Part shown: piece after piece, positions 4,379-43,530 of the stretch | Numbering within the stretch: position 1 is the stretch's first letter | Layout: each line of letters begins with the position of its first letter | DNA from: Ignavibacteriota bacterium | Lineage (GTDB): Bacteria > Bacteroidota > Ignavibacteria > UBA10030 > UBA6906 | Assembly: GCA_003157485.1 (NCBI GenBank) | Contig: PMJQ01000203.1 | Span: 35,415-99,414 of the forward strand | Length of the DNA: 64,000 bases | Reading direction: 5' to 3' | The notes under the pieces: generated by a model | Told to the model about the DNA's origin: nothing | Seen by the model: the letters and a program-made list of their open reading frames with translations, nothing else | The model's database searches: none | Translations under genes and position numbers: made by a program

Positions 4379-5668
4379 ATGAAATCTGACGAAGACGTGG
4401 GTAGGGGCGCGGCGGGGAAGCGCCGAAGGAGGGATCTCCAGGCGTCTGCCGTCGAGCTCCTGAAATCCCTCAACCTCATCGTCGGCCTTGACCAGCTTCT
4501 GGAAATCCTGTGTGCCCGGCTGAAGGAAATATTCGGCGCCGGGACCGTGACGATCTCTCTCTTCGATCCCATCACTCGTCGCTATGCCGGGATGATGGCC
4601 CGCGGGTCCGACGCCCCGAATGCCGCGTTGTTCGGTTTCTTCGAGTTTAATCCCCTCGTCAAATGGCTGAACGTCAACCAGTCCCTCCTGAACGTGCGGA
4701 CAGACAGGGGTGTCTTTGACTACCTCTCGCCCGAAGAGAAGCTTGTACTTGAGTCCCACCGGGTTGCGCTGGTTGTCCCTCTTATCGCGCTGAACAGGCT
4801 TACCGGCATCCTCTTCTTATCCGACAGGGAAGACGGAACCGCGTACTCGCGCGCCGAAATCGAGAACCTTCTCATGGTTGCCGGCCAGGCTTCACTTGCC
4901 GTGGAAAACGCGGTGATGACGCAGTTTCAGGAGGAGAGGCTCAAGAAACTCTTCCACGCGGACAAGCTGGCCACCGTCGGCGAGCTCGCGGCGGGCGCCG
5001 CCCACGAAATCCGCAATCCCCTCACGTCAATCCGCAGCACAGTTCAGTTCCTGAAGAAGGACCTCCCGGCTGAGAAGCACGGCTACGTGGATGGCGTCAT
5101 CGAGGAGGTGGACAGGATCGACGGGATCATCAAGGGGCTCCTCTCTCTCAGCAAGTCGTCGGAATTACAGCTGAGCAGGGTCGACCTCCGCGAGGCGCTC
5201 CAGCAGACGCTCCTGCTTCTGGACCCCGAGATGAAAAGGAACGGGGTTGCCGTCAAACAGGAGATAACGATCGTCGATCCGACTGTGGAAGCGGACCAGG
5301 CCCAGGTCAAACAGGTATTCCTCAACGTGCTTCTGAACAGCATACAGGCGATGCCTCAGGGGGGCGCTATTACCGTCCATATGGCCGACCGCCCCGACGG
5401 CAAGAGAGAAGAGTCTCTCGATTCCGTCCGCGTCACGCTTTCCGACACGGGCCCCGGGATTCCGGAGGAAGCGATGCGAAGAGTGTTTGACCCGTTTTAC
5501 ACGACAAAAGAGAACGGAACGGGGCTCGGGCTTTCGATCACGTACGGCATCGTCCAGGGGCACGGGGGTGAAATTGACATCGTGAGCAAGACTGACCCCT
5601 CTTCACACGGGACCAGCGTGACAATCCGTATGCCGAGGAAAGCTAAAAAGCTGACGATTGGCCATTAG
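4379..5668 (+). CDS. cytoplasmic GAF-domain sensor histidine kinase
   Basis: H-box AAHEIRNPLTSIRS, N/G boxes (LNSIQAM, DTGPGI, GTGLGLSI), no TM segment, GAF-like N-terminal half. Confidence 0.85.
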   Translation: MKSDEDVGRGAAGKRRRRDLQASAVELLKSLNLIVGLDQLLEILCARLKEIFGAGTVTISLFDPITRRYAGMMARGSDAPNAALFGFFEFNPLVKWLNVNQSLLNVRTDRGVFDYLSPEEKLVLESHRVALVVPLIALNRLTGILFLSDREDGTAYSRAEIENLLMVAGQASLAVENAVMTQFQEERLKKLFHADKLATVGELAAGAAHEIRNPLTSIRSTVQFLKKDLPAEKHGYVDGVIEEVDRIDGIIKGLLSLSKSSELQLSRVDLREALQQTLLLLDPEMKRNGVAVKQEITIVDPTVEADQAQVKQVFLNVLLNSIQAMPQGGAITVHMADRPDGKREESLDSVRVTLSDTGPGIPEEAMRRVFDPFYTTKENGTGLGLSITYGIVQGHGGEIDIVSKTDPSSHGTSVTIRMPRKAKKLTIGH

Positions 5669-5707
5669 GGTCCGTTGCACGGCTCCTGGATCCATTCAGA
5701 TATCATA

Positions 5708-7105
5708 ATGACGCGAACCGCGGCATCGAAAATACTTGTTGTCGACGACGAGGAGCGAATCCGGACGATACTTGCCGCGATACTCCGCGGCGAGGGGTAT
5801 CTGGTCGAAACCGCGGCCGACGGGATTGAAGCCCTTGATCGGGGAACGGCGTTCCGCCCGGACGTACTCGTCGTCGATCTTCAGATGCCCCGCATGGATG
5901 GGATAGAGACGATAAGCCGGTTCAAGGAGAGGGTCCCGCACGCCGCCGCAATCATACTGACTGCCCACGGGTCGATTCAATCTGCAGTCGAAGCCATCAA
6001 AAAGGGAGCGTATGACTACCTGACCAAGCCGTTCGACAACGACCAGCTTCTGATGGTAGTCCGGCGTGCGTGTGACCTCGTGAGGATCTCAAGTGAGCTG
6101 GAACGGCTCAGGGCCAGACTGGAGCCGCAGGGGGGTCTTCGAGCACTCCTCGGCGAAAGCGATCTCATGCGGGATCTGCGCGCACGGATCCAGAAAATCG
6201 CGGAGGCCGACGCGACGGTTCTCATTTGCGGGGAAAGCGGCACCGGGAAGGAGCTTGCCGCCCGCGCGATACACATGGAGAGCAGAAGGAAGGAAGAGCC
6301 GCTCGTTGTCGTGGATTGCGCCGCCATTCCGGAACAGCTCATGGAGAGCTCGTTCTTCGGTCACGAGAAAGGGGCGTTTACCGATGCCCACGAGCAGAAA
6401 ACCGGCGCCTTCGAAGAAGCGAACGGCGGGACCGTGTTCCTTGACGAAATCGGGGAATTGCCCACGGGTGCACAGTCGAAGCTCCTGAGAGTCCTGCAGG
6501 AGAAAGAGTTCTCCCGTGTCGGGTCAGCAAGTCCGATACGCGTGGACGTGCGTGTAATTGCCGCGACGAACAAGGATCTCGCCGCGCGCGTCAGAAAAGG
6601 GAAGTTCCGCGAGGACCTCTATTACAGGCTCGACGTCCTCAACCTGAAAATGCCGTCACTGAGAGAACACATCGGGGACGTGCCCCTCTACGCGGCGCAT
6701 TTTATCGAAAGATACAGGAGTGTGTTCGGGAAACGGGTCTCGGGGATATCGCCGGAAGCTCTCCAAATTCTCACGTCGCTCCCCTGGAACGGCAACGTGC
6801 GCGAGCTCGAAAACGTCATCCAGCGGGGCCTCTTAAACGCCTCGGGGGAAACCTTGCAGGAGGCCGACGTCAGATTCGCCGGAGAAACAGGTGGCCGGAG
6901 CGCGGTGCCGTGGGACCCCTCCGTGGGGCTTGAGTTGTATGTTAAGTCCCTCTCCGAAGAAGCGGAAAAGAGGATCATACTTGAATCTCTTGGCCGGACC
7001 GGCTGGAACAGAACAGCGACCGCCCAGAACCTGGGGATCAGCAGAAAGACCCTCTTCAACAAGATGCAGCAGTACGGAATAGAGGAAAGGCCTGTGGAGC
7101 CCTGA
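5708..7105 (+). CDS. sigma54-dependent response regulator (NtrC family: REC-AAA+-Fis HTH)
   Basis: ILVVDDEE...DLQMP receiver, Walker A GESGTGKE, GAFTDA loop, RVIAATN, C-terminal HTH AQNLGISRKTLFNKM. The ORF opens at 5675 (TTG) and the ATG at 5708 was chosen. Confidence 0.9.
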   Translation: MTRTAASKILVVDDEERIRTILAAILRGEGYLVETAADGIEALDRGTAFRPDVLVVDLQMPRMDGIETISRFKERVPHAAAIILTAHGSIQSAVEAIKKGAYDYLTKPFDNDQLLMVVRRACDLVRISSELERLRARLEPQGGLRALLGESDLMRDLRARIQKIAEADATVLICGESGTGKELAARAIHMESRRKEEPLVVVDCAAIPEQLMESSFFGHEKGAFTDAHEQKTGAFEEANGGTVFLDEIGELPTGAQSKLLRVLQEKEFSRVGSASPIRVDVRVIAATNKDLAARVRKGKFREDLYYRLDVLNLKMPSLREHIGDVPLYAAHFIERYRSVFGKRVSGISPEALQILTSLPWNGNVRELENVIQRGLLNASGETLQEADVRFAGETGGRSAVPWDPSVGLELYVKSLSEEAEKRIILESLGRTGWNRTATAQNLGISRKTLFNKMQQYGIEERPVEP

Positions 7106-8050
7106 ATGAGAAAGACATTCCGCGTTCTTCTTGTCGTCATTCCCCTCCTGGTTGTGGCTCTGAGCCTGGGTTTGCTCTACGCAATCGAGAACGTCCTTCC
7201 CTATTCCGCAATCCGGCCGCACAGGTGCACCGTCGGGGAGATGGCCCTCTCCTCTCCCAATTTTCTGAGCCCGGCGGCGTTCACTCCCCACTGGGAGAAC
7301 TTCGATATCACAGTCGAGGATACAATCCGGTTGAAAGGCTGGTTCATATTCGCATCAGGCGGGGAAAACAGGGGGACGATATTACTGCTCCACGGGATCG
7401 GGAGCTGCAAAATTACAATGCTCTCACTGGCAAAGCTGTTCGTCCAGAACGGGTTTAACTGCATTCTTTACGACTCGCGCGCAAATGGCGAGAGCGGGGG
7501 TATCAATTGTACGTTTGGGTACTACGAAAAGCGGGATCTTTCGGCATACATCGATTCAGCCCTCGTACGATATCCCGGTTCCGCGCCGTTCGGTGTCCTC
7601 GGTGATTCATTCGGCGCTGCCACGGCAGTACAGGCGCTGGCCTGGGACAAACGTCTCGTGTGCGGTATCGCCGAGAGCCCGTTTGCCACACTGCGCGGCG
7701 TGATACATGATTATTTCCGGCAGATGTATTTCGTCCCTTTGTACTTCATTCCGGACGCCGCCCTCGTCAATTCCGAGCGAATTGCACGGTTTCAGGTGGA
7801 CAGCGTGAGTCCCGAACAGGATGCCCGGAGGATCACTCAGCCCACGATGATCGTCCACGGTTCAGCCGATCGCAAAATCTCTTCGCAGTACGGGAGGCTG
7901 GTCTTCGACAACCTGGCTTCGACACATAAGGAATGGTATCTGGTCGAAGGTGCGGGACACTCGGATATCGGGAATGTCGGTGGCGCTGAATATGAAGCCC
8001 GGATCGTCGGATTCTTTAGGACATATCTGAACGTGAACACTGCTCGATGA
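7106..8050 (+). CDS. membrane-anchored alpha/beta hydrolase
   Basis: The ATG directly abuts the activator stop (TGAATG). N-terminal TM, HGIGSCK, nucleophile elbow GDSFGA, C-terminal GAGHSD. Confidence 0.8.
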   Translation: MRKTFRVLLVVIPLLVVALSLGLLYAIENVLPYSAIRPHRCTVGEMALSSPNFLSPAAFTPHWENFDITVEDTIRLKGWFIFASGGENRGTILLLHGIGSCKITMLSLAKLFVQNGFNCILYDSRANGESGGINCTFGYYEKRDLSAYIDSALVRYPGSAPFGVLGDSFGAATAVQALAWDKRLVCGIAESPFATLRGVIHDYFRQMYFVPLYFIPDAALVNSERIARFQVDSVSPEQDARRITQPTMIVHGSADRKISSQYGRLVFDNLASTHKEWYLVEGAGHSDIGNVGGAEYEARIVGFFRTYLNVNTAR

Positions 8051-8394
8051 AAGGACGCCGGAGAGGATTCTGTCGCGAACCGATGTCTTCTCTGAATTCG
8101 TTCGGTTGAAGCAGCCGAAATGTCTGAGAAATCATCCCTTCGTTTCTGCACCCCCCGCGTGACGTCTGACACACACACTCTCCTAAAATTTCACCACTCT
8201 GCAACAACCTCATACGACCTTCAAATGCTGAAATACTTCATTTCCGCAAACGCGATTCTGTTCTTTGCTGGTAGGTCTTCGGTTATAGAAACAATTCGCG
8301 AGCGCTTCAAGCGAATGCTCGGTTGGTCCACGTTTACCGTGCACAGGGACGTCTAAGGGCGCATGATTCGGACTGGAACCCGGGGGAATCTCAC

Positions 8395-8571
8395 ATGAAT
8401 ACTGTGACGATAGTCTGTCCGCATTGTTACAATGAAGGCGACCACCCGTTTTACCTGAGGCCGACCCCTTTCAAGCTCAGCGGGTCAAATCGGGTTCTCT
8501 GCGAAAACTGTTTCAAGAAGTTCAGGGTTTACTTCCAGGAGGGGAGAATCAGCAACGTGGCGAGAGTGTAA
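8395..8571 (+). CDS. small zinc-ribbon protein (58 aa)
   Basis: MNTVTIVCPHCYNEG...VLCENCFKKF has two CxxC pairs. GGGGGA lies 8 nt upstream of the ATG. The gene sits in lower-GC sequence. Confidence 0.5.
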   Translation: MNTVTIVCPHCYNEGDHPFYLRPTPFKLSGSNRVLCENCFKKFRVYFQEGRISNVARV

Positions 8572-8612
8572 GTCTTCACTGCCTGATCAGGAAAAACTCT
8601 TTCGATTGTTTC

Positions 8613-8750
8613 TTGCTATTGGGTCATTTGTTCGTTAGCTTGAACACAGCCCCCCGTCTGACACTGTCCTTCCGCTTTCTGTCCTACGTAGAGCTTTGCA
8701 TTTCTCCTGTTGCCCCATCCTCGGGAAATTGCATCACGCGCCTGAATGAG
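8613..8750 (+). promoter_or_regulatory. B element copy 2: conserved promoter plus 5' leader upstream of 8786-9127
   Basis: TTGCTA(8613-8618)-N17-TAGCTT(8636-8641), identical 28-nt core at 8666-8693, conserved hairpin 8697-8733 (UGCA-UUUCUC / GGGAAA-U-UGCA) with the loop GUUGCCCCAUCC conserved in copy 1. Confidence 0.6.
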
Positions 8751-8785
8751 GACAAATCGCTTTCCAGGAAGTGGAGAATGTGCGC

Positions 8786-9127
8786 ATGGAAAACCCTCCC
8801 AATATCCAGCCAGCAACAGACTTGCTCGACGGCCTAAAACGCTCGATTCATACGACGTATTGGTCATACTGTGCCGAATTGGAACGGCTCAAATTGTTCA
8901 AAATAGGGCACGACGAAGACACCAAATCATGGTCTGATCGCGCCCAGAGCAACCCGACCGACCAGAATCTGCAGCGATTGGCAGAATACGGTTCGCAGGG
9001 AACTGGCTTCTTGGACCTGCTTCTGACCGAACTCGAAGGCTATTCACTTAAGTACCGGAGTTTCGCACGGTTCGTGGACGATGTCGAGTTGCAGCTGGGG
9101 ATACTGGGAACCGGAACTTCAGTTTGA
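8786..9127 (+). CDS. hypothetical protein (113 aa), no recognisable domain
   Basis: ATG 8786 with GGAG 9 nt upstream (alternative GTG at 8771). Lower GC than its neighbours. Followed 27 nt later by A copy 4. Confidence 0.55.
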   Translation: MENPPNIQPATDLLDGLKRSIHTTYWSYCAELERLKLFKIGHDEDTKSWSDRAQSNPTDQNLQRLAEYGSQGTGFLDLLLTELEGYSLKYRSFARFVDDVELQLGILGTGTSV

Positions 9128-9153
9128 TGCAGATGTCGAAGAACGTGAGATGT

Positions 9154-9200
9154 GCGTCCTCAACCAGTTCCGGCCCCTCCTGGGACCATCGACGCGGGTG
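9154..9200 (-). repeat. A element copy 4 (inverted relative to copies 1-3)
   Basis: The reverse complement reads CACCCGCGTCGATGGTCCCAGGAGGGGCCGGAACTGGTTGAGGACGC. Confidence 0.7.
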
Positions 9201-9306
9201 CCCGGGGGCTGTTGTGTGTAAGGCTCTACCCACCCCCGTGTAACGGGTTACCCGACTTTCCTCCCTCACCCCTTTCATTTCTATAATTTCCGCAATTATC
9301 CCCAAA

Positions 9307-9320
9307 GGCACGGCGCTTGC
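9307..9320 (+). promoter_or_regulatory. sigma54 (-24/-12) promoter of the ABC operon
   Basis: aGGCACGgcgcTTGCA with GG(9307-9308)-N10-GC(9319-9320). About 57 nt upstream of the ATG at 9377, with an AGGAG RBS in between. Confidence 0.7.
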
Positions 9321-9376
9321 ACGCCCATGCCCATTGACCCGCGGCAACACACAAACACCCAGGAGCACCCAACGCC

Positions 9377-10087
9377 ATGATACAAGCCATCGATCTCACG
9401 AAGCGCTACGAGGACGGGCTCCTCGCTCTCGACCACCTCAACATTTCGATCCTGCCCGGCCAGATATACTGCCTCCTGGGGGCGAACGGGGCCGGCAAAA
9501 CGACGACAATCAATCTGTTTTTCAATTTCATAGAGCCGACGAGCGGGACGGCCCTGCTGAACGGAAAAGACTGCACGAAGGAGCCCCTTCTCGCGAAGCA
9601 GTTCGCGGCGTATGTGTCGGAGAATGTCATGCTGTACGGCAACTTCACTGCGCGCCAGAACCTGGACTTCTTCACGAAGCTTTCGGGAAGGAAGAACCTG
9701 AGCAAGGATGAGTATTACATGGTGATGCGCCAGGTCGGCCTTCCGGAACGTGCTTTCGAACAGAGAGTGAAGACGTTTTCCAAGGGGATGAGACAAAAAC
9801 TCGGGATCGCCATCGCAATCCTCAAGCAGGCCCCGGCGCTCCTTCTTGACGAACCGACATCCGGGCTCGATCCGAAGGCCGGAGCGGAGTTCGTGGAGCT
9901 GCTTCTCAAGCTGCGCGGCGAGGGGAAAGCCATACTCATGTCCACCCACGACGTGTTTCGTGCGAAGGAAATCGCGGACGTCGTCGGGATCATGAAGGAG
10001 GGAGTCCTGATCATGGAGAAGACGAAGGATGATCTGAAGTACGAGGACCTGGAGAAGCTCTATCTGAAGTACATGGAAGTAAGCTGA
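9377..10087 (+). CDS. ABC transporter ATP-binding protein (ABC-2 type)
   Basis: Walker A GANGAGKTT, signature FSKGMRQKL, Walker B LLLDEPTSGLD, H-loop STHD. Confidence 0.9.
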   Translation: MIQAIDLTKRYEDGLLALDHLNISILPGQIYCLLGANGAGKTTTINLFFNFIEPTSGTALLNGKDCTKEPLLAKQFAAYVSENVMLYGNFTARQNLDFFTKLSGRKNLSKDEYYMVMRQVGLPERAFEQRVKTFSKGMRQKLGIAIAILKQAPALLLDEPTSGLDPKAGAEFVELLLKLRGEGKAILMSTHDVFRAKEIADVVGIMKEGVLIMEKTKDDLKYEDLEKLYLKYMEVS

Positions 10088-10156
10088 CGACCCCGGGGCC
10101 CAGTCCGTTCTTATTACGGGGTCCCGGAACCCCGCATACAGAATGACGGTGCAGCA

Positions 10157-11719
10157 ATGATCGGTCATATCGTTCGGAAGGAACTGCTTGTTAACCTCCA
10201 GAGTATGAGGTTCCTCGTCGGGCTTGTTGTCAGCGCACTCATGATGGGGATCGTGGGCTATGTCCTCGTCGAGGATTATGCGACAAGGATGCAGAAGTAC
10301 ATTGCAGATGTGGCGGAACACCGTGCAGCGCTTGCGGAGACGAAAGTGTATTCGATGGTTGCAGTCGATGTTGACATCCCTCCTTCGCCGCTCTCGGTCT
10401 TCAGCAGGGGCTCGCAGAACCTGCCGACTACCCTGCATGTCTCCCCTTTCCATGTCCCATCGCTCATCGATGAAGGAGGGGCGAGCGCTTCCATAGGACT
10501 CAACGGGACGAGCAGTCATGCGGACAATCCGCTCCTGAGGATGTTCAGCTCCATTGATCTTGGATTCGTCATCAGCACAATCCTGAGCCTGTTCGCCGTG
10601 CTGCTGGTGTTCGATAGTTTCAGCGGGGAACGGGAGCAGGGGACGTTGAAGCTGCTCCTGACTTCATCCGCGGGCAGGGTTCACCTCCTGGCCGGAAAGT
10701 ATGTTGGCGCACTCGTGACGCTGGCGATACCGCTGACTGTCGGGTTCCTCGAGGTGATGATCCTCTGGGCCCTTCACCCCTCCCTCTCGTTTGACGCGCA
10801 AGTGTGGGCGGGTGTGGGACTCGTGTATTGTGCTTCCCTTCTTTTTCTCTCCAGCTTTCTTGCGATGGCTCTTTTCCTCTCCCTGTATGCGACGGAGTCC
10901 TCATCCTGTCTTATGTACCTGCTCCTGGCCTGGGTGACAGTATCCGTTGTCATCCCGGCAGGAGGCGGATACGTAGCGGAGTATTTCCGTCCGAAGGGGC
11001 TCCGTGAGATCATGTTGAGCGAAGCGAAACAGGCGAGTGCCCACCTCAGCAACGAGCTGGAGCGTCTGAATTACCGGCAAAAAGGCGGCTGGAACAACGC
11101 ATGGACGGACTGGTTCGGAGCGGAATCCATTTTGGGTTTGACTCAGCAAGAAGCCAATAACAGGCTCGCATACAACCAGAAGGTTGTCCCGATGAAGTTG
11201 CAGTACGCTGAAGACCGGTATCGCGTCGTCGAATCGTATGCGCAGGGACTCCTGAGCTGGAGCCGGACCAGGGAGGACCTGATCCGGCCATCCCTCTGCG
11301 TCGACTACGGCAATGTGGTGCAGGCCCTGGCGGGAACGGACCTCAATACCTTTGACGATCTTGTTCAAAAGTCAAGACTCTACCGTGACGCGATGATGGC
11401 GTACCTCCGACCGAAGTCAGAAACGAGCCTGTGGTTCACCCGGATATTTGAATACCCTGACATGGAGCCCACGGAGAAGAATCAACAGTACTGGCAGAGT
11501 CTTATCGAGAAAGAGGGTCAACGGGCCGTCGAGAAGATCATGAGCTGGGACAGGGTGTCGTCTCTCGACCTGACGTCCATGCCCCCACCTTCGGTGAATA
11601 TGCGCGGCGTGACCGAGCGGGCGCTCCATGCGCTCCCGGATGGGATCCTGCTCTTCGCGGCCAGCGTTGTCTTCATCGGGCTCTCGATGATCCGGGTGCG
11701 TCACTATCCCTTGAACTAG
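10157..11719 (+). CDS. ABC-2 family permease paralog 1 (520 aa, large extra domains)
   Basis: N-terminus MIGHIVRKELLVNLQSMRF, FSGEREQGTLKLLL, multiple TMs, VVIPAGG, long helical insert, terminal TM. Confidence 0.8.
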   Translation: MIGHIVRKELLVNLQSMRFLVGLVVSALMMGIVGYVLVEDYATRMQKYIADVAEHRAALAETKVYSMVAVDVDIPPSPLSVFSRGSQNLPTTLHVSPFHVPSLIDEGGASASIGLNGTSSHADNPLLRMFSSIDLGFVISTILSLFAVLLVFDSFSGEREQGTLKLLLTSSAGRVHLLAGKYVGALVTLAIPLTVGFLEVMILWALHPSLSFDAQVWAGVGLVYCASLLFLSSFLAMALFLSLYATESSSCLMYLLLAWVTVSVVIPAGGGYVAEYFRPKGLREIMLSEAKQASAHLSNELERLNYRQKGGWNNAWTDWFGAESILGLTQQEANNRLAYNQKVVPMKLQYAEDRYRVVESYAQGLLSWSRTREDLIRPSLCVDYGNVVQALAGTDLNTFDDLVQKSRLYRDAMMAYLRPKSETSLWFTRIFEYPDMEPTEKNQQYWQSLIEKEGQRAVEKIMSWDRVSSLDLTSMPPPSVNMRGVTERALHALPDGILLFAASVVFIGLSMIRVRHYPLN

Positions 11720-11769
11720 AACTGCGGCACAACGATACTGAGCCGGACAATCCCCAAACGGAGCGAGTC

Positions 11770-13140
11770 ATGTTGTGGACAGTCGTCAAAAGAGAACTTC
11801 TCGATCACCTTTTCAGTTTGCGCTTTTCCGCGATCTTTGTGCTGACGCTTATTCTGATGCTGACGTCAGTTCTTGTCTTCTCAGCACGCTACGCCCGGCA
11901 ACAAAGGGAATATCCGAAACGGGTGGAGGCCTTCGTAGATGAACAGGGGACTGTCAACCTGTACTCGATCGCATGCAATAGTGGCGCCACGGTTCGCGAA
12001 GTTCCTTCCCCGCTCGGGTTCCTGTTTGCAGCGGGGGAACGTGAGCTTCCTGACCAATCCGTGATGGCGCTCCACGGGTTGAACACGCTGTGGAGAAGCA
12101 CTGAACCGGGGGACATCATGGATTCCTCCTCCGGGACTGACTGGACGTACGTGGTCACCGTTCTCCTGAGTTTTGGGGCCGGTCTACTGACATACAAGAG
12201 TATATCAGGCGAACGCCGCGACGGCACGCTCACGCTCGTGCTTGCCAACCCTGTGTCCAGAGCCACTATTCTTCTGGGAAAATACCTGGCCGCCCTTCTT
12301 GCGCTTGGCACCGTGTTCATCGCCTCCGTGCTTGCAGGCGTGATTCTGCTGGAGGTGCTGGGGACCGCGCAGCTCGGCGGGGACGATTGGATAAAACTGG
12401 GGTTGTTCGTCCTGTTGAGCATGATTTTCCTCTCCGCGTTCGTATTCGCGGGCCTTCTCTGTTCAGTCTTTACACGGGGTCCCGTGCTTTCCGCGGTTGC
12501 GTTCCTCTTTGCATGGATGACGCTTGTCTTCGTTATCCCTAACCTGGGAGGCATTCTTGCCGGACTCAATGGAAAAGCGCAGACACCGCTTCAGGTACGC
12601 ATGGCCGCGAAGGAAATTCCCGACAGGTACACGCTGACCCCCGCTATGAGCGGCGAGAAGGTCGCATCCACTATGCTGGAGAGGGAGTCGGCGAGGGAAC
12701 AATTGCTCCTGTCGTATTTCCGGTCGCTTGTGGCCCAGGTTGACCTCGGTCGCAACCTCACGAGGGTATCTCCCGCTTCGGCATTCTCCTTTGCCGCGGA
12801 GCGGATTGTGGGAGGAGGAACGTTCCGGCTTACACGTTTTGTGGACAATGCGGTTCGATACAGACAGGGGATGTTCCAGGCTGTCATCGAAGCGGACAAA
12901 CGCGACCCGAAAAGCCAGCACAGGTACGTCCCGTATTGGTGCGGCGGCGACCACTTCTCGGCGTTGACAGTCGACCTGGGACCGGCAAAGGAGTTTCATG
13001 ATACGCTCCCGTCGGCGAAGGAAGGGTTTGCCGCTGCATTCTGGGATCTCTTCCTGCTGCTCATGTACACGATCATCGCGTTCGCAGTCGCCTTCTGGCG
13101 GTTCGCCCGGCAGGACGTAGCGCCTGCGCCGGGGACCTGA
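11770..13140 (+). CDS. ABC-2 family permease paralog 2
   Basis: MLWTVVKRELLDHLFSLRF, SGERRDGTLTLVL, VFVIPNLGG, SPASAFSF, terminal TM. Confidence 0.8.
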   Translation: MLWTVVKRELLDHLFSLRFSAIFVLTLILMLTSVLVFSARYARQQREYPKRVEAFVDEQGTVNLYSIACNSGATVREVPSPLGFLFAAGERELPDQSVMALHGLNTLWRSTEPGDIMDSSSGTDWTYVVTVLLSFGAGLLTYKSISGERRDGTLTLVLANPVSRATILLGKYLAALLALGTVFIASVLAGVILLEVLGTAQLGGDDWIKLGLFVLLSMIFLSAFVFAGLLCSVFTRGPVLSAVAFLFAWMTLVFVIPNLGGILAGLNGKAQTPLQVRMAAKEIPDRYTLTPAMSGEKVASTMLERESAREQLLLSYFRSLVAQVDLGRNLTRVSPASAFSFAAERIVGGGTFRLTRFVDNAVRYRQGMFQAVIEADKRDPKSQHRYVPYWCGGDHFSALTVDLGPAKEFHDTLPSAKEGFAAAFWDLFLLLMYTIIAFAVAFWRFARQDVAPAPGT

Positions 13141-13175
13141 GCGTGCCCATCGATCCTCATCAGGAGTTCACGTCG

Positions 13176-14426
13176 ATGAGAGACATCGCAAGGAAAGAAT
13201 TACTCGAGAATCTGACAACGTACAGGTTCTCTATACTCACGGGGCTGATCTTCTCGATGATGCTCATAAGCATCATCGTCTCGTACGGGGATTACCATCT
13301 CCGCGTGGAGAATTACAACATACTCCGCCCGGGGCCGAAAGAAAGGGAGAAAGTCATACTCCCGCCGGAACCGCTCTCCATATTTGCCAGGGGGCTTGAT
13401 GCCAACGCGGGACGGCTCTACCAGCTCTCGTTCCGCGGGATCGATGTGCAGCCCAGTCAGCAGTCGATCAACCGGGTCTCGTCGCTCTTCAGCCTGCCGG
13501 ACATGCTCTTTGTCACGCGGGTCATACTCGCGCTCGCCGCACTCCTCTTTTCATTTGATGCGATTTGCGGCGAAAAGGAGCAGGGGACGTTGAAGCTCAT
13601 GCTTGCCGGCAGAACAAGGAGGGCGTCCGTCGTCCTCGGCAAGCTGGCCGGGAGATATCTGCTTGTGATCGTCCCTTTTGCGGTTCTCTTCATCCTCTCT
13701 GCGATCGTTGTGTCGCTCCTTCCGGATGTGCATGCCGGAACGGAATACTGGATCAGGCTCGCAATGATCCTCGCCGGGTCCGCTCTCTACGTTGCCTCGT
13801 TTATAGCGCTCGGGACGTTGATTTCTTCGGTCGTTCACAGAAGCGCGACCTCGATGATGGTCGCGCTCGCCTCCTGGGTCCTCCTTGTGTTTGTCGTCCC
13901 GAACATGGGGGCAACGGTGGCGCAGGCGATCGGGGACGTCCCTCCCGCCGACCGGGTCGAGATGAAGACGCGCCTGGCCGTCATTCAATCGATATTCGAA
14001 ACGCAGCAGTCGATGAAGAACGCGAAGCAGAGGGACTACAGCCGGATCATGAAGCAGATCCGGGAGGCCAACACCGGGATGTTCCAGACGTACAGGCCGG
14101 AGCTGAACCGGCTCATTTCGCTCACGAGGTCGATCGCCCGCTGCTCTCCCGCCGGAGCGCTTGAATTTCTCTCAACGGAGCTCTCCAACACCGGGCTCAG
14201 CAGGGATCTCGGGATCAAGGATGCGATCTGGATGTTCGTGGAAAGGAATACCAACAGGTTCGCCGGGCTTGAAAAAGGGGAGGTGGAGCAGTTCGAATAC
14301 CGCGCGGCCACTCCGGGAGAGCAGATCGCCGGCGTCGCGCTCCCGGATGCTCTTCTGTTGCTTATCATGCCGGCGGTGCTCGTTGCGCTGGCCGTGGGAT
14401 CATTCCTGCGCTACGATCCCCGGTAA
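13176..14426 (+). CDS. ABC-2 family permease paralog 3
   Basis: The ORF opens at GTG 13143. The ATG at 13176 gives MRDIARKELLENLTTYRF, colinear with its paralogs. Also CGEKEQGTLKLML, VFVVPNMGA, ending FLRYDPR. Confidence 0.8.
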   Translation: MRDIARKELLENLTTYRFSILTGLIFSMMLISIIVSYGDYHLRVENYNILRPGPKEREKVILPPEPLSIFARGLDANAGRLYQLSFRGIDVQPSQQSINRVSSLFSLPDMLFVTRVILALAALLFSFDAICGEKEQGTLKLMLAGRTRRASVVLGKLAGRYLLVIVPFAVLFILSAIVVSLLPDVHAGTEYWIRLAMILAGSALYVASFIALGTLISSVVHRSATSMMVALASWVLLVFVVPNMGATVAQAIGDVPPADRVEMKTRLAVIQSIFETQQSMKNAKQRDYSRIMKQIREANTGMFQTYRPELNRLISLTRSIARCSPAGALEFLSTELSNTGLSRDLGIKDAIWMFVERNTNRFAGLEKGEVEQFEYRAATPGEQIAGVALPDALLLLIMPAVLVALAVGSFLRYDPR

Positions 14427-14475
14427 CGGACGCTGCCCCCGGTAGGCCGGCAACCGGAATGAAGGAGGAAACCAC

Positions 14476-15897
14476 ATGCTTTCGCATCTGATACGCAAAG
14501 AGCTCCGCGAGAATTTCCTGAACATCCGGTTCATTGCGGCCTGCGGCGTCTCCCTCGTGCTCATGATCTCCTCGATCGCCGTCCTCACGCGGAGCCATGA
14601 AGAGCAGGTGCGGGATTACCAGGACAGGGTGCGCCAGCAGGACGAGTTCATCGATAGGTACGGGCACCTCAACCGGCTGGGGTGGATGTCCGCGCTGACA
14701 CGGGGCCCGTCTCAGCTCCAGGCCCTCGTTCTGGGTGTCGACAGGGAGGCCCATCAGGACAATTTCGTAAGCAACCCCGTCCCCGTGCTTCTCTCCCGGT
14801 TGGACTTTGCCGCAATTGTTACGATCATCATGAGCCTTGTCGCCATTCTCTTTTCGTACAATGCGGTAAGCGGCGAACGCGAGGCGGGGCTCCTGAGGCA
14901 GATACTCGCATCGGGGATTTCCCGGAATGCGCTCCTGGCCGGCAAATTCGCGGGGGGTCTCGTCAGCCTTCTCATCCCTTTCACGGTGAGCGTCCTTGCC
15001 GGCATGCTGTTCCTTGCGCTCAATTCCTCGCTCCAGCTCCAGACGGCGGATTTCTCCGTGTTCGCGCTCCTTCTCGCCGCCTCCTGGCTCTACGTCTCCG
15101 TGTTCCACTCCATCGGGATATTCTTCTCCACCCGTTCACAGACCTCCGGTGAGGCGATACTGAAGTCCCTGTTCGCCTGGGTGATTCTCGTCCTCGTGAT
15201 TCCGAACGCCGCCCCCTTCCTGGCGGCCCAGTTCTACCCGATTCCCTCTGCGACAAGGCTGGCTCAGGACAGATACATGATCACGGACAGGGAACGTGAC
15301 GCCATCGTTATGCAGCGCAGGAACGCCATGCTGGAAGGGAGCTTTGCCGACCTCAAGGGGATCGTCGATCTTTCCCCGAACGAGATCCAGGAACGGCTGA
15401 AATCGGACCCCCGGATCGGTGAACGATACAGGCAGTACGCGAAAGAGTATGACCAGATCATTAACATCACGAACAAAGAGCAGGGGGAGAAGTACGGGAA
15501 GATCGAAGAGGTCTTCCTGCAGCGCTCGCGCGTTCAGGAGAAGCTCGCGGCCATCCTGACGTCCGCCTCCCCGCTCTCGAACTTCGTGTTTGTCGCGACT
15601 GACCTGACAGAGACGGGGCTCGCGGCGGATGATCACTGGGAGCGGGTGTCGGGCGAATACAGTAATGCGCTCTCCGGCTATGCGGACGTGCAATACCGGA
15701 AGGCGGTGGAGAAGGACCCGACGTTCGATTACAACGACTACCTGGACCTCCGGGCGCGTCCCCGGTTCCAGTACCGGCCCGCGGGGCTGATGGAAAGGGC
15801 GGCCCCCGACCTGCTTCAGTGGGGCGTGCTGATCATGTTCAATCTTATATTCTTCGCGGCGGCATTCGTGAGTTTTCAACGCTATGACGTCCGTTAA
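14476..15897 (+). CDS. ABC-2 family permease paralog 4
   Basis: GGAGGAAACCAC-ATG, MLSHLIRKELRENFLNIRF, SGEREAGLLRQIL, VLVIPNAAP, ending FQRYDVR. Confidence 0.8.
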   Translation: MLSHLIRKELRENFLNIRFIAACGVSLVLMISSIAVLTRSHEEQVRDYQDRVRQQDEFIDRYGHLNRLGWMSALTRGPSQLQALVLGVDREAHQDNFVSNPVPVLLSRLDFAAIVTIIMSLVAILFSYNAVSGEREAGLLRQILASGISRNALLAGKFAGGLVSLLIPFTVSVLAGMLFLALNSSLQLQTADFSVFALLLAASWLYVSVFHSIGIFFSTRSQTSGEAILKSLFAWVILVLVIPNAAPFLAAQFYPIPSATRLAQDRYMITDRERDAIVMQRRNAMLEGSFADLKGIVDLSPNEIQERLKSDPRIGERYRQYAKEYDQIINITNKEQGEKYGKIEEVFLQRSRVQEKLAAILTSASPLSNFVFVATDLTETGLAADDHWERVSGEYSNALSGYADVQYRKAVEKDPTFDYNDYLDLRARPRFQYRPAGLMERAAPDLLQWGVLIMFNLIFFAAAFVSFQRYDVR

Positions 15898-15909
15898 CGG
15901 GGAGGTGTG

Positions 15910-17379
15910 ATGGGAAGACTTGTTGGCCTTGCGCTTGCTCTTGTGGTTGCCCACTTCGCGGCCGCTCAGATGCTCTATAACCCGAACGATGAGAGGTTCA
16001 AATCCCTGTACCTGGAGAAAACGCAGAGCGACTACAGGATGCAGAAACAGGACTTCCAGCGGCAGAAGCTCCTGCATGACAAGGGGTTGATCTCGGAACG
16101 GGATTACAGCCAGTCGGAAGCGTCATTCAAGGCGGCGCAGATCACGTACCAGCAGGCCATACTCTCCCTGGCGTTCGAGCAGCCGCACATCACTATCGAC
16201 AACGGCGTAAAATACCAGGGAAAAGACGGGAAGAAGCGGGTCCGGCTTACCCTGCGGAACACAACGGGGGGACTCATCGAGGGGAAGAAGATCGAGCTCG
16301 AGGATTTCGAGGGGATAAAGACGGACCGGATAGCGAACGTATACGTATCGCTCCTGAACGACACGAAAGCGATCGTCAGCAAGCCGTATGAGGCGAAGAT
16401 CGAAACGATGCCGTTTAACAGGCCCGTTGCGCTGGATTTCTTTCTCCTCCAGGACCTGGACAACGTGACGGTGAAATGCGTGTACGGCGATAAGACCGAC
16501 GAAAAGAAGATATTCCTCCAGAAGGACGAATCCGCGAACCGGGTGCTGATAAGTTCCGACCAGTTCTCCCAGGAAGCCGACCTCGGCGCAAGGGCGAACT
16601 ACAACCTCACGCTCGAGCTCTTTTCGAGCTCCGACAACGTCTACAAGCTGGACGTGTTTAACCTCCCCCGGCAGATTGCCTGCGACTTTCTGGAGGACCC
16701 GACAAACGCCCGGCTTTCCCAGGTCAAGTTCTCCCAGGACGTCAATTCACGGAAGATCGCGCTTGCGATCTACCTCCCCGACAGGTACGACAGCGCGTCG
16801 TTCATGATCGACGCGCCCATCGCATTTTACGCTGCGGCGATTCCGCGCGCCCAGGCGGAGAACGTGGCCGACAAGGAGAAGAAGTACACCGTGGCCGAGC
16901 TGGACCGGTTGAACATAAGCTACATCCGGCTCGAGCTCGTTCCGCGCGGCGTGGGGAGAATAGAGGTGAGGGCGGCGAATTTCTACCAGGAGCTGAAGCC
17001 CGGCGAGCGTGTGCAGATGAATCTGACGGTCTATAACGACGGCACAAGGCGGCTCGACAACATCAAGGTCCAGGCGGAATCGCCCCTCAACTGGACCTCA
17101 ACGATTCTCCCTGACCTCGTCCCGTCGCTTCTTCCCGGCAAGGAGGAGACCGTCTCAGTCACGATAATTCCGCCCGGTGACGTGAGCGTGGGGGATTACG
17201 AGACGACGATAAAAACTGAAGCGTTTGCGAGCAGCAGGAAAGTCGACTCGGAGGATAAGAAAATCCGGATCCACATTTACTCGAGCGCAAACGTATTCGG
17301 GACCGTGGCCCTGATCCTGCTTCTCGTGGGGATACTCGTGGGGGTCGTCGTCTTCGGCGTCCGGCTCAGCCGGAGATGA
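15910..17379 (+). CDS. membrane-anchored accessory protein: MFP/HlyD-like coiled-coil N-terminus plus NEW3/CARDB-like beta domain plus C-terminal TM
   Basis: Signal or anchor LVGLALALVVAHFAAAQ, coiled coil LISERDYSQSEASFKAAQITYQQAIL, NEW3-like VQMNLTVYNDGTRRLDNIKVQAESPLNWT...VSVGDYETTIK, C-terminal TM VALILLLVGILVGVVVFGV. Confidence 0.65.
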   Translation: MGRLVGLALALVVAHFAAAQMLYNPNDERFKSLYLEKTQSDYRMQKQDFQRQKLLHDKGLISERDYSQSEASFKAAQITYQQAILSLAFEQPHITIDNGVKYQGKDGKKRVRLTLRNTTGGLIEGKKIELEDFEGIKTDRIANVYVSLLNDTKAIVSKPYEAKIETMPFNRPVALDFFLLQDLDNVTVKCVYGDKTDEKKIFLQKDESANRVLISSDQFSQEADLGARANYNLTLELFSSSDNVYKLDVFNLPRQIACDFLEDPTNARLSQVKFSQDVNSRKIALAIYLPDRYDSASFMIDAPIAFYAAAIPRAQAENVADKEKKYTVAELDRLNISYIRLELVPRGVGRIEVRAANFYQELKPGERVQMNLTVYNDGTRRLDNIKVQAESPLNWTSTILPDLVPSLLPGKEETVSVTIIPPGDVSVGDYETTIKTEAFASSRKVDSEDKKIRIHIYSSANVFGTVALILLLVGILVGVVVFGVRLSRR

Positions 17380-17481: not shown

Positions 17482-20448
17482 CTACCATTCCGCTCTCAGC
17501 CACACGAATCCCATCGCCGGCACTGTCACCCGGCTTCCTACTTCGGTCTTCCCGCGCTCTTCGCCCATGTCACATATGGTGACGGACATCGGCTGCCTGG
17601 CAGGCCACAACAGAGTCGCGGTTTCGCTCTTCTCTGAAAGGGAGCGCAGGTGAACAATGAGCGCCTTTCCGTCTTCCGTCGACTTGAGCATTGTGACTGC
17701 GACGTGGCCGCTCGCGAGGGCAATAAGCGGCTCCGGGATGGGATTCCGGTCGGCCGCAAACGCAATGAGCGGCTGAGATTGCTCCATGCCGAATCTGCCT
17801 GCCGCTCCGGAATCATACCTTCCGTGCAGCAGGATCCTGTAACGGAATTCGACCGGTCCATCCTGCGTAAGGGGCGTATTTGTGAACCAGTGGTTGTTCA
17901 TCACCCAGGAATAGATCGTGGAGCTTGGTGTGAGTGTGGCGGGCCACACGTCCCCTTTCCCGTCCCAGCCCGCCGTATTGTTCGCGCTGATGCTCCCGTA
18001 CTCGAAAAGGGGAGCGTCGAGTGAACACCATGTCACCCCCATCGTATCGTTGGAGATGTCCACAAAATGCTGTGCCGTTATCCACGCGCGGTTTGCGGCG
18101 TCCCATTGATCGACATCGGGTTGAATTATCCCCCACGGGATATCGACATGTGTCTTCCCATCCGGAATGGCGAATCCAAATCCGAAGTGAACGCCGTCCT
18201 TTGCCGGCAGGGGGAGCTTGTCGACGACATCGGTGATCTCGACCTGCGGCTGGCCGCACATCAATCTGACCGATCGGGTAACCGAGCGGCATCCCGGGGC
18301 TTTGGATGTCACCTGTATCTCTCCCGCGATCGGCCCGGATTCCTTCAGCACGATTGATGTGACTGTGTCGGGTCTGGCTTCACCCGTGCCCCTGGCTGGC
18401 TGCCATCGGAATGCATTGAGTCCGCCGTTGACGCTTGTGTCGGCAAAATCCCTCCAGGATGCGTCATTCACAAGCCGGACGATATTGCCCGTCCTCCGGT
18501 CCAGCGAAATCTGAACGACCCCGTTATCCAGCAGTGTATCGGTACACGCGCAGTGCCCGCCGATCGTACGCGTGCCGGGCACAACCCTGAAATGCCGCGA
18601 GCCAAATGCGGGCACAATCGGAGACATAAAGATCAATTCTCCTGTCGAGAGCCTCTGGGAGAGCATCTCGTTCCCCTCGTCATCGACAACGCGATCGCCT
18701 GTCTGGCTTTCCTGTGGCATCAGCGTTACGACTCCACCCTGTGGCCAGTGATTCGTGTTGAGCACCGCCACTCCCCCGCGTGACGGGCCCTCGGCGGGTC
18801 CCAGCGCGCCGTTGGACTTGTCTGTTGCGGGGGCGAGCGCGTCGTCAAGTAGCGCCTGACTCCGGTCATCGGCCTCCTGGAAATAACGCTGCTTGGCCTT
18901 CCATATGGCGTTCTGGAAGTAGGGCTCGCCGGGGTTTTCGGCGGCGAATGTGTGCTCCGTGCACATCACGATATTGCGCCAGGCCTCGTCGAAATCTGCC
19001 CGCGGCGCCGGCTCTCCCGGGTGAAGCATGGACCATGCGGTTTCCGCCTGCACGAGCCGCTCCCGTGAGTTCAGGCACACGCGGGTTTGCCTGGCGAACG
19101 TGCCGAAGCTGTCCGTCCAGTAATCGCTGAAGTCCCCTTTCACCAGGGGGAGCATGTCGCCGTACCGCTTTTCGAACGTCTCCATGATTGTGTGCGCGCT
19201 GGAGATCACGAGATGCGGGTAGGCGTACTCGTCGTTCCATGATCTCACCGCCTCCGGCAGATCTGCATCCAGAAGCGCGTTGTCCCACATCGCCCATGTG
19301 ACAACGAAAATATCATAAGGATAGTGTGAGTTCTCCAGCTCAGGCAGCTCGCGGAACAGATGGTGGTCCAGGAAATCAGCCCGCGGGTTGCCGGTCCTGA
19401 TGACTTCAGGGATCTTTGAACGGTCCCTCTGGCCAAACCACGGGCGGCCGGTTTTTCCACCTTTCTCCATCCCCGCGCCATACGTGCCGGCATTCAGGAA
19501 GAGGACCTTTGATTTGCCGTCCTGTCCCGTCCACCAGAACGGCCTGTAGCGAAACCGGGAAACCATGCTGTCGTTTCCGCGCCCGCCGTTCGGCATCATC
19601 ATGACATAGCGGATTCCTTCGTGTGCCATCACCTGCACGAGTCCCCACGCCATTCCCGGCACGTCCACCTGCACGTACGTATCGATCGGTTTACCGGTAA
19701 GCCTGGCTGCTTCTCTTCCCGCTCTCAGGCTTTGAATCATCTCCTCGTCGCTCATGGCGGTCGTGAGTTCGTTCACGTATGCCGCGTCGAGGCACAGCTC
19801 GCCCCTTTGGACCGCTTCGATGAGCCGCTTTTTCTGATCGGGTGCTGCAGAAGCGTAGTACCGCTCGAACGGCCACATCACCTCTGTGTTCCAGAGGTAC
19901 CGGGACCCTTCCGGGTAATTCCGCGTGGCTTCCGCCAGTTTGATCCCCTGATCGATATTCCGTTTGTGTATGAATTCGACGTTCGCCTGCGTGTTGGAGT
20001 AGCCGATGTCCACGTGGGAGTGGGGATAGACGTACACTGTCCAGTGGCGCATGGGAGGGACCTGTATCGTCTGCGCGAGTGAGTCCCTTTCCTGTCGCAG
20101 CGTCAGTCTTACAGTTGACGCTTCTTTGACGCCTGCGTCCGGCGGGAGGAGAATCGACGCGGAATCCAATCCGGAGGCGGCCGCTGTGAAATGTATTGTT
20201 TCGGAACCTCTGTCGGTGAGGATTTCAATACTGGCCGCGCCGCGTAGCTGTGAGTGCATAAACCTCAACAGGACAACCCTTCCGGGCTTTCCGTCCGCAC
20301 GGTATTTGTAATAAGGTTTTACGGCGCACACAATGCTGTCCGGGAACGTTCGGGGCTGTGGACTTCCGGGCCGGGATGATGCCGGTGCGGTACAGAAGAT
20401 GCAGAGTCCGATCGCGGCAATCAGCCGCCGGTGAGATTGTTGTTTCAT
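17482..20448 (-). CDS. glycoside hydrolase family 38-like (alpha-mannosidase-type), secreted
   Basis: GH38 N-terminal metal motif YVYPHSHVDIGY, about 990 aa. The ATG at 20448 (MKQQSHRRLIAAIGLCIF...) follows GAGGGAA. Confidence 0.6.
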   Translation of the reverse strand: MKQQSHRRLIAAIGLCIFCTAPASSRPGSPQPRTFPDSIVCAVKPYYKYRADGKPGRVVLLRFMHSQLRGAASIEILTDRGSETIHFTAAASGLDSASILLPPDAGVKEASTVRLTLRQERDSLAQTIQVPPMRHWTVYVYPHSHVDIGYSNTQANVEFIHKRNIDQGIKLAEATRNYPEGSRYLWNTEVMWPFERYYASAAPDQKKRLIEAVQRGELCLDAAYVNELTTAMSDEEMIQSLRAGREAARLTGKPIDTYVQVDVPGMAWGLVQVMAHEGIRYVMMMPNGGRGNDSMVSRFRYRPFWWTGQDGKSKVLFLNAGTYGAGMEKGGKTGRPWFGQRDRSKIPEVIRTGNPRADFLDHHLFRELPELENSHYPYDIFVVTWAMWDNALLDADLPEAVRSWNDEYAYPHLVISSAHTIMETFEKRYGDMLPLVKGDFSDYWTDSFGTFARQTRVCLNSRERLVQAETAWSMLHPGEPAPRADFDEAWRNIVMCTEHTFAAENPGEPYFQNAIWKAKQRYFQEADDRSQALLDDALAPATDKSNGALGPAEGPSRGGVAVLNTNHWPQGGVVTLMPQESQTGDRVVDDEGNEMLSQRLSTGELIFMSPIVPAFGSRHFRVVPGTRTIGGHCACTDTLLDNGVVQISLDRRTGNIVRLVNDASWRDFADTSVNGGLNAFRWQPARGTGEARPDTVTSIVLKESGPIAGEIQVTSKAPGCRSVTRSVRLMCGQPQVEITDVVDKLPLPAKDGVHFGFGFAIPDGKTHVDIPWGIIQPDVDQWDAANRAWITAQHFVDISNDTMGVTWCSLDAPLFEYGSISANNTAGWDGKGDVWPATLTPSSTIYSWVMNNHWFTNTPLTQDGPVEFRYRILLHGRYDSGAAGRFGMEQSQPLIAFAADRNPIPEPLIALASGHVAVTMLKSTEDGKALIVHLRSLSEKSETATLLWPARQPMSVTICDMGEERGKTEVGSRVTVPAMGFVWLRAEW

Positions 20449-20563
20449 TTGAGTTCCCTCGATGCGAGTGCCATCGCATTGCACCCCATCATACTGCCCG
20501 GCAGTCTCGGACGTCTCATCGTTCTTCTCTCTCCCTTCATTGGATGCCGGAAGTCATTGAGTC

Positions 20564-23695: not shown

Positions 23696-23937
23696 CTCGT
23701 TCCTCCTGATTCCTGTATGGATGTGAATTCCTCCGAGTTTCAGTGTGCGCACCTGTGAGTTGGTTCGACAGGGGGTGGTACCGCATGCTCGGACGGCGTT
23801 TGGTGCCAAAGAAAGAAGGGGACGATCGGGCATAGTGACGGAGCAATCGGGGGAGGTAGTGGGTTGAAACCGCCGGTCTGGAATGTCATGGAATCACTCC
23901 GGCATCGTGAGGATACAAAAAAACAACGGAACGGAAA

Positions 23938-26080: not shown

Positions 26081-26235
26081 GCGATTCACGTAGTGTCGGA
26101 GGATACGCCGGTGCGTGCGGGACCTGACCTCCGGACAGTGATGATCTTCGAATGGTCTCCGGACCGGAGTGTTCTTCAATCTACCGAATCCGCTTCTCGC
26201 GTGCAATGGACCGGCCGCGGCCCGTGCGGAGATCG

Positions 26236-26264
26236 TTGCACTTTCGGCAATTGAATCGTATCTT
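26236..26264 (+). promoter_or_regulatory. candidate sigma70-type promoter for the M1 peptidase gene
   Basis: TTGCAC-N17-TATCTT, about 200 nt upstream of the ATG at 26466. Confidence 0.35.
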
Positions 26265-26465
26265 GGACCCGGCCTATCCCGGAGTTCATTCACGCGCGCC
26301 CCTGAGTCGATCGGATCCGGGGCTTTCCTTTCTCCTGCCTGTCCCGCAATGTCACATTCGGAGGAACGCACAATCACGCACGCTCGAAGCCGGAAGGCTG
26401 CACGCGGGGGATGCAGTTCATATTCGCTGTACTTATGAAGAATTAACGACGGGACAAGACTTCAA

Positions 26466-43506: not shown

Positions 43507-43530
43507 CGTGGAGCCGGCGGACGCATTCAG

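Follow-up and report, generated by a model that had tools for sequence, protein, structure and literature searches.

A 64,000-nucleotide stretch of contig PMJQ01000203.1 (hereafter the window), derived from an uncultured Ignavibacteriota bacterium of peat or fen, carries an operon of six intact and closely spaced open reading frames (ORFs) on the plus strand at 9377-17379, which encode one ATP-binding cassette (ABC) ATPase, four permeases (P1-P4) and one anchored NEW3-domain protein, referred to here as the partner. Comparison with related loci indicates that the operon belongs to a conserved family in which a constant chassis, made of an ATPase dimer and the partner, is probably combined with interchangeable cassettes, each being a pair of unlike permeases that would assemble as a heterodimer. 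Together with the further proposal of inducible extrusion under the control of sigma54 and a two-component system, this interpretation is assigned a probability of about 0.5.

A conserved family with one to seven permease genes

ORFs were called in 34 related loci (designated by L numbers) and scored with a permease profile and with the window proteins. A recurring kit, consisting of a GAF-domain histidine kinase, an NtrC-type activator, one ATPase, the permeases and one NEW3 protein, was found in about 30 loci from metagenome-assembled genomes (MAGs) labeled Ignavibacteriota or Bacteroidota, from Kryptoniota and KSB1/Zhuqueibacter, and, with a different gene order, from Cloacimonadota. The family is conserved, and the layout seen in the window is not a one-off. 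An earlier caveat was that the arrangement would be unremarkable if its gene order were common and already characterized; no description of a system joining NEW3 with long NosY-like ABC-2 permeases was found in the literature. The number of permease genes varies between one and seven (Table 1), so the ratio of one ATPase to four permeases, which the first-pass annotation of the window had singled out as exceptional, lies within the range of the family. The partner measures about 490 aa at every permease count, and permease cassettes have been gained and lost between close relatives.

Table 1. Permease genes per locus in the window and its relatives
Permease genes	Loci
1	L001, L003, L025, L030, L036
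2	L009, L011, L019, L024, L029, L031-L033
3	L012
4	window, L007, L008, L022, L026, L034
5	L010, L018
6	L016, L017, L021
7	L028 (one gene cut by the contig end)

When all other ORFs in the loci were clustered, conservation was limited to the genes of the ABC system, kinase and activator and to shadow ORFs. As had been noted for the window alone, an outer-membrane duct of the TolC type, a binding protein and a biosynthetic gene were all missing from the conserved neighbors of the system in this clustering of related loci. Close relatives of the NEW3 protein are numerous in assemblies from peat, fen and wetland that are labeled Ignavibacteriota or Bacteroidota, among them those of L007 (95% identical) and L008 (92%), and the window sequence itself is present in many peat and permafrost metagenomes. 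A profile search with the partner returned 263 clusters (50% identity) at E <= 1e-30, and among the best 150 of these 263 most matches were full-length. The partner family is therefore sizeable, with at least 263 clusters, and has no name beyond 'NEW3 domain-containing protein'.

In one locus of a KSB1 MAG (L005, 3992-5414), a Transposase_mut gene lies between the permease pair and the NEW3 gene, which has its own sigma54-type match 77 nt upstream.

Permeases occur as fixed pairs of ancient origin

Permease trees were built from 93 sequences by a quick method and from 56 sequences by a more careful one. Both resolved 13 permease orthogroups, each with 100% support, and 12 of the 13 were found only beside a fixed adjacent partner in a fixed order, with no exception seen. 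These form the pairs B1-B2, C1-C2, D1-D2, E1-E2, F1-F2 and G1-G2; type A stands singly. In the window, P1-P2 correspond to B1-B2 and P3-P4 to C1-C2. B1 and B2 occur in an identical set of nine genomes, with B2 always directly 3' of B1, while C1-C2 is the commonest pair and C2 always lies directly 3' of C1. The paralog phylogeny suggested by the first-pass annotation thus places the permeases in old orthogroups organized as conserved pairs rather than as a fixed quadruplet. Of the alternatives that it had offered, a hetero-oligomeric or a modular machine, the modular one holds, with exchangeable adjacent pairs in arrays of one to seven genes, and a single hetero-oligomer of four permeases is unlikely.

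At a deeper level, the first members of pairs B, E, F and G group together with support of only 86/65, and their second members form a separate clade (95/98) that includes the Cloacimonadota pair G. The position of pair G within these clades suggests that an ancestral pair predates the split between Ignavibacteriota and Cloacimonadota. Types C and D and the single type A constitute a third group (91/88). A division of all pairs into alpha and beta members, hinted at by BLAST similarities of P1 to P3 and of P2 to P4, was rejected because the careful tree supports it for B, E, F and G only. Judged from these trees, the window holds one pair from each of two ancient lineages and not recent tandem duplicates.

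Selection acts on every gene of the operon. Ratios of nonsynonymous to synonymous substitution rates (dN/dS) were obtained for the window against L007, L008 and L028, and for the partner against L007 and L008 only. The four permeases gave values of 0.10-0.16 at protein identities of 68-90%, the ATPase 0.01-0.03 at 95-99%, and the partner 0.03-0.04 at 91-95%. All four permease genes are under purifying selection, and the stronger constraint on the ATPase and the partner (0.01-0.04 versus 0.10-0.16) fits the behavior expected of hubs that serve several partners. Pseudogenized permeases in close relatives, a concern raised at the outset, were not found: the sole apparent frameshifts, in L026, coincide exactly with three NN scaffold gaps, and decay of the permeases in that locus was rejected on this ground.

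Gene content of the window operon

The proposed content of the operon (one ATPase, four permeases and a NEW3/CARDB-like protein with a C-terminal anchor) is borne out, as Pfam assigns all six intact ORFs (Table 2). All four permeases pass the gathering cutoff of ABC2_membrane_2 (PF12679; 27.2 bits) with 75.8 (P1), 112.1 (P2), 88.8 (P3) and 97.6 bits (P4); of the other domains earlier named for checking, DUF3526 gave a weak match in P2. Pairwise identity among P1-P4 is 24-33%. The listed start of P3 agrees with its orthologs (414-420 aa), and an alternative GTG at 13143 would give 427 aa.

Table 2. Features of the operon and its regulatory region in the window
Feature	Position	Strand	Details
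Soluble GAF histidine kinase	4379-5668	+	GAF, HisKA, HATPase_c (Pfam)
NtrC-type sigma54 activator	5675-7105	+	receiver, AAA+, HTH_8; Sigma54_activat 1.9e-71
Two direct repeats GTGTAA-N5-TACCC	9216-9231, 9238-9253	+	22 bp from start to start; candidate enhancer, 54-91 nt before the -24 element
Sigma54-type -24/-12 promoter GGCACG-N4-TTGCA (putative)	9307-9321	+	sole strict match on both strands of the 64-kb window
ABC ATPase (nucleotide-binding domain only)	9377-10087	+	236 aa; ABC_tran 2.6e-27 (Pfam)
Permease P1 (orthogroup B1, first member of pair B)	10157-11719	+	520 aa; ABC2_membrane_2 4.4e-21
Permease P2 (orthogroup B2, second member of pair B)	11770-13140	+	456 aa; ABC2_membrane_2 3.8e-32
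Permease P3 (orthogroup C1, first member of pair C)	13176-14426	+	416 aa from ATG 13176; ABC2_membrane_2 4.7e-25
Permease P4 (orthogroup C2, second member of pair C)	14476-15897	+	473 aa; ABC2_membrane_2 1e-27
NEW3 partner protein	15907-17379	+	490 aa; NPCBM_assoc/NEW3 3.6e-14, overlapping CARDB (Pfam)

Permease fold

The AlphaFold model of P1 (predicted local distance difference test score, pLDDT, 89.5; predicted template modeling score 0.86) comprises an N-terminal amphipathic helix, a long first transmembrane (TM) helix, a small beta-containing loop, TM2-TM5, an insertion and TM6. In agreement with the helical segment of roughly 150-220 aa that had been read from the sequences before the last TM helix, the insertion between TM5 and TM6 is modeled as all-helical (residues ~282-461), with one helix of 47 residues. 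The positive-inside rule and homology to NosY suggest that both the loop and the insertion are periplasmic. Although the insertion is variable elsewhere, its Ser-Pro motif hardly changes among 86 permeases; one may speculate that it is a docking point for the shared partner.

NosY is the sole clear solved relative of the permeases (profile E 1.4e-18), with PmtD a distant second, and NosY chains are also the best matches of the P1 model in the PDB, with template modeling scores of 0.65-0.69 normalized to NosY. By both the Pfam threshold and the six-TM fold, P1-P4 qualify as NosY-like ABC-2 (type V) permeases of the ABC2_membrane_2 family. The motifs listed in the first-pass annotation are present in all four proteins; two of them, KELL..RF and SGE.E.GTL, have counterparts in NosY (an N-terminal 'ArKEL...' and a 'GE.E.GTL.LLL' motif) and are family-wide instead of being specific to the operon. 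By analogy with the type V architecture, they would be located at the cytoplasmic face, the site of contact between an ABC-2 permease and its ATPase.

Partner protein and ATPase

The structure model of the partner (pLDDT 84.7) shows a short helix resembling a signal peptide, in which positions -3 and -1 are small residues, the sequence YNPNDERFK, a two-helix hairpin (residues 29-91), about four immunoglobulin (Ig)-like beta-sandwiches, of which the last is the NEW3/CARDB domain, and a C-terminal TM helix. YNPNDERFK is invariant from Ignavibacteriota to Cloacimonadota, although the homologs are only 25-30% identical overall. A fold search of the PDB returned generic Ig arrays only (integrin legs, alpha-2-macroglobulin and S-layer proteins), with template modeling scores of 0.15-0.29. 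An HlyD-like coiled coil had been proposed from the sequence; the helical hairpin is indeed present, but assignment of the protein as a membrane-fusion protein (HlyD/RND_mfp) was rejected, given that TIGR01730 scores 17.5 bits against a cutoff of 94.9, covers residues 27-85 only, and the remainder of the model consists of beta-sandwich domains.

In some homologs of the partner the first Ig-like domain is repeated two or three more times, which brings these proteins to ~560-800 aa (P0131 at L037 4963-7119, P0139, P0141 and P0167), so that the length of the stalk varies by lineage. In addition, one metagenomic protein of 892 aa (P0197, L039 370-3048) has an ABC2_membrane_2 permease fused to a NEW3 partner, the N-terminal hydrophobic segment of the partner forming a seventh TM helix at the join. 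This single case among the 150 best representatives lies on one 3-kb contig and could be an assembly or frameshift artefact; it lends weak Rosetta-stone support to a physical coupling of permease and partner.

The nearest solved relatives of the ATPase are the first nucleotide-binding domain of ABCA4/ABCA1 (4e-55) and NosF (7e-32), and its closest types are DrrA, lantibiotic-protection and ABCA ATPases. Among the permeases, weak matches to MutG, SagH and PmtD were detected.

Promoter, regulators and expression

The element GGCACGGCGCTTGCA occupies 9307-9321, 70 nt before the ATG of the ATPase gene, and in the form aGGCACG-N4-TTGCA (9306-9321) fits the sigma54 consensus at 10 of 11 positions. 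It is kept at the same distance in orthologous loci, and promoter-like matches occur 52-117 nt before the first gene in L001, L005, L007, L008, L011, L017, L025, L026 and L027. The correctly spaced -24/-12 elements and the nearby gene for an NtrC-type activator give the operon the sequence hallmarks of the sigma54-type class. The activator gene is syntenic with the operon in at least 15 loci, and its product has a GAFTDA variant of the activator loop (residue 233), which is common to the orthologs in Ignavibacteriota-type loci. Orthologs of the kinase adjoin the ABC genes in Ignavibacteriota, Kryptoniota and Cloacimonadota loci. The kinase, termed soluble because its three domains leave no space for a TM segment, is the probable sensor of the system.

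The motif GTGTAA-N5-TACCC has just two matches in the window, both upstream of the promoter, against a chance expectation of 0.27. The repeat block is invariant in an upstream alignment of the window, L007, L008 and L026, and the motif also precedes the system in L007, L008, L011, L012, L018, L023, L025, L026 and L027. The repeats are a good candidate enhancer for the GAFTDA-type activator. With a conserved promoter, an upstream repeat, and synteny of kinase and activator across phyla, the earlier suggestion of a sigma54-driven operon is upheld at the level of predicted regulatory elements. Sigma54 control of FtsX permeases has been noted (2025, PMC12316311).

Strandless, low-depth metatranscriptome contigs from wetland and peat align without a mismatch to P1, P4 and the partner gene, and exact-match contigs cross the ATPase/P1, P2/P3, P3/P4 and P4/NEW3 junctions, which fits co-transcription of the operon.

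In the window, positions 7106-9300 lie between the regulators and the operon and contain the gene of a membrane alpha/beta-hydrolase, followed by about 1.3 kb of DNA with small ORFs of 82 and 118 aa. In L008 the regulators adjoin the operon and the promoter directly follows the activator gene, so this stretch looks like an insertion into the regulator-operon junction.

Proposed mechanism and evidence for export

In the favored model, the single ATPase would act as a dimer, and each cassette, a fixed pair of unlike NosY-like permeases, would form a heterodimer upon it. A cell carrying the window could then make two alternative transporters, P1+P2 and P3+P4, that have the motor and the partner in common and differ in their membrane and periplasmic parts. 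Once triggered, the GAF kinase would signal to the NtrC-type activator, whose binding to the GTGTAA-N5-TACCC repeats would switch on the sigma54 promoter. The substrates may be peptide antibiotics or lipid-like toxins removed from the inner membrane.

The cassette architecture, a probable feature on the evidence of gene neighborhoods and trees, should be distinguished from its function. Inducible export or extrusion of amphipathic, envelope-active compounds, with a different specificity for each cassette, is put forward tentatively, as a possibility somewhat short of even odds. It is favored by the ATPase type (DrrA, lantibiotic-protection and ABCA) together with the weak permease matches to MutG, SagH and PmtD; by the location of single-permease relatives beside an StsB-like maturase and an MsbA-like exporter under sigma54-type promoters; and by the turnover of cassettes between close relatives, as seen in defense repertoires.

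The single-permease loci concerned (L001 1586-7357, L003 2310-7220 and L025 2180-7255) lie back to back with a gene for an StsB-like radical SAM/SPASM maturase with a PqqD domain, and the same neighborhoods also encode an ABC exporter resembling MsbA, a sigma54 activator that lacks a receiver domain, and a large PAS hybrid kinase. In L025, sigma54-type matches also precede the adjoining radical SAM and exporter genes. A gene for a precursor peptide was not recognized in any of the three clusters; an 82-aa ORF and a 285-aa protein in them have no family match.

Several observations weigh against the model as a whole. The link to a peptide maturase is limited to one clade (3 of about 30 loci); a radical SAM or peptide cluster like those of L001, L003 and L025 was sought in the window and not found, and the window contains no substrate, precursor or biosynthetic gene. 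All matches to immunity-transporter families fall far under the curated cutoffs. A soluble kinase cannot directly sense an external compound, and the best structural relative, NosFY, is not a transmembrane exporter. The case for heterodimers and for sharing of the ATPase is one of gene co-occurrence throughout. Finally, the metatranscriptome contigs might stem from contaminating DNA and do not define a 5' end.

Alternative explanations

The main competing possibility is a mechanotransducer resembling NosDFY, in which nothing is moved across the membrane: the ATP cycle would flex the permease insertions and drive the Ig stalk of the NEW3 protein to load, hand over or assemble at the periplasm or cell surface, each permease pair coupling the same partner to different clients. 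The standing of NosY as the only clear solved relative, by sequence and by fold, speaks for this explanation, as do the precedent of NosDF2Y2, which works in this manner with one periplasmic partner, the occurrence in every locus of an extremely conserved partner with an invariant mature N-terminus, the spacer-like expansion of its Ig domains in some lineages (~800 aa), and the lack of a conserved outer-membrane duct beside the system. However, a gene for a client protein, chaperone or enzyme is not conserved there either, the partner is unrelated to the beta-helix NosD, and a cell's need for as many as three or four permease pairs per partner is harder to explain; a mechanotransducer is regarded as rather unlikely, though deserving serious weight. 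Also unlikely is a new class of plug-in periplasmic machine, in which a fixed motor and an Ig stalk with a YNPNDERFK tip would be driven by swappable pairs, the helical insertions serving as levers and the stalk being coupled to differing envelope clients, with no crossing of the inner membrane.

The remaining alternatives concern the way in which the permeases assemble. Four separate homodimeric transporters with one ATPase in common would be in keeping with the homodimeric state of NosY and many ABC-2 permeases and with the single occurrence of type A (L001, L003, L025, L030 and L036). Yet independent homodimers need no fixed arrangement, and 12 orthogroups are never found without their neighbor in constant order; first and second members, moreover, belong to separate ancient clades, and this explanation is distinctly improbable. 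Tight packing of the genes and RNA contigs crossing their junctions could point to one large hetero-oligomer containing all four permeases at once, but the ATPase and a partner of unchanged size accompany 1, 2, 3, 4, 5, 6 or 7 permease genes, and known ABC transporters have two transmembrane domains per ATPase dimer, so that very little credence is left for such a complex. Least credible of all are redundant or decaying tandem duplicates without distinct roles: copy number does differ between relatives, but the low identity among P1-P4, the old orthogroup to which each belongs, the dN/dS values and the scaffold-gap origin of the L026 frameshifts already contradict this view.

Comparison with known systems

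NosDFY(L) is a copper-delivery ABC complex for the maturation of nitrous oxide reductase (PDB 7O0Y, 7ZNQ and 7QBA). In NosDF2Y2, a single periplasmic partner receives the ATP-driven changes, and the available maps revealed no transported sulfur. The window system resembles it in the core fold and the N-terminal and SGE.E.GTL motifs of the permeases, in the ABC-2 ATPase and in the single extracytoplasmic partner. In contrast, the window permeases are 150-250 aa longer owing to the all-helical insertion between TM5 and TM6, and they occur in heterologous pairs and several cassettes under putative sigma54/two-component control; their partner is an Ig-domain stalk with a hairpin, whereas NosD is a beta-helix. 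No nosZ, nosL or nosD gene was found nearby or among the conserved neighbors, which sets the system apart from NosDFY.

Immunity exporters such as LanFEG (NisFEG, MutFEG), CprABC of Clostridioides difficile and AlbCD of the subtilosin cluster contain two unlike ABC-2 permeases, often possess an extra membrane-anchored extracytoplasmic protein, and are induced by an adjacent two-component system. The window operon shares with the LanFEG type the combination of one ATPase with two unlike ABC-2 permeases and an adjacent two-component system, and the single-permease relatives described above adjoin a sactipeptide-type maturase. It differs in having permeases about twice as long, a diderm host, a soluble kinase and no peptide gene in the window. 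The LanFEG models are not reached, with scores of 155.9 versus 309.75 bits for TIGR03740 and at most 21.6 versus 117.2 bits for TIGR03733.

A GldFG-like function, one of the candidates initially listed, is not supported. GldAFG, from the same superphylum (Bacteroidota), likewise joins an ABC-2 ATPase and permease to an auxiliary protein bearing a hydrophobic segment at each end, and GldF is the top NCBIfam match for P1, P2 and P3. However, the scores are 18-40 versus 288.5 bits for GldF and 132.7 versus 402.6 bits for GldA, and the partner has no Pfam match to ABC_transp_aux (PF09822), the GldG domain. Group II energy-coupling factor (ECF) importers, in which a shared EcfAA'T module serves many S components, provide a conceptual parallel only, namely a constant energizing module with interchangeable specificity subunits; their fold, transport direction and gene organization are unrelated. 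Searches with the PADLOC anti-phage models gave no match for P1-P4 or the NEW3 protein, and generic ATPase matches only.

Neighboring genes in the window

Downstream of the operon and convergent with it lies a gene for an alpha-mannosidase-like hydrolase of glycoside hydrolase family 38 (17482-20484, minus strand). A Por_Secre_tail domain, the C-terminal sorting domain of type IX secretion, ends the genes at 3621-4256, 20564-23833 and 24896-26377, in keeping with a host from the Fibrobacterota-Chlorobiota-Bacteroidota (FCB) group. Farther away, the interval 42325-44958 encodes another GAF-type kinase together with an NtrC-type activator whose loop is the canonical GAFTGA, and three sigma54-like matches cluster within 39350-39520, at 39353 (minus), 39487 (plus) and 39514 (minus). 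Together, these two regions may represent a further sigma54 regulon.

Implications

ABC-2 (type V) systems are usually pictured as one ATPase with one permease or permease pair. In the family described here, the motor and the extracytoplasmic partner stay constant, and permease pairs that appear to be of the heterodimer type are added, swapped and lost as cassettes. With a conserved sigma54-type promoter, a candidate enhancer and confident structure models, the system is tractable, and it would lend itself to asking how a single nucleotide-binding domain works with several membrane partners and what role is played by long NosY-like permeases with helical insertions. If the immunity interpretation is true, the permease arrays would represent unrecognized resistance repertoires in abundant peat and wetland bacteria.

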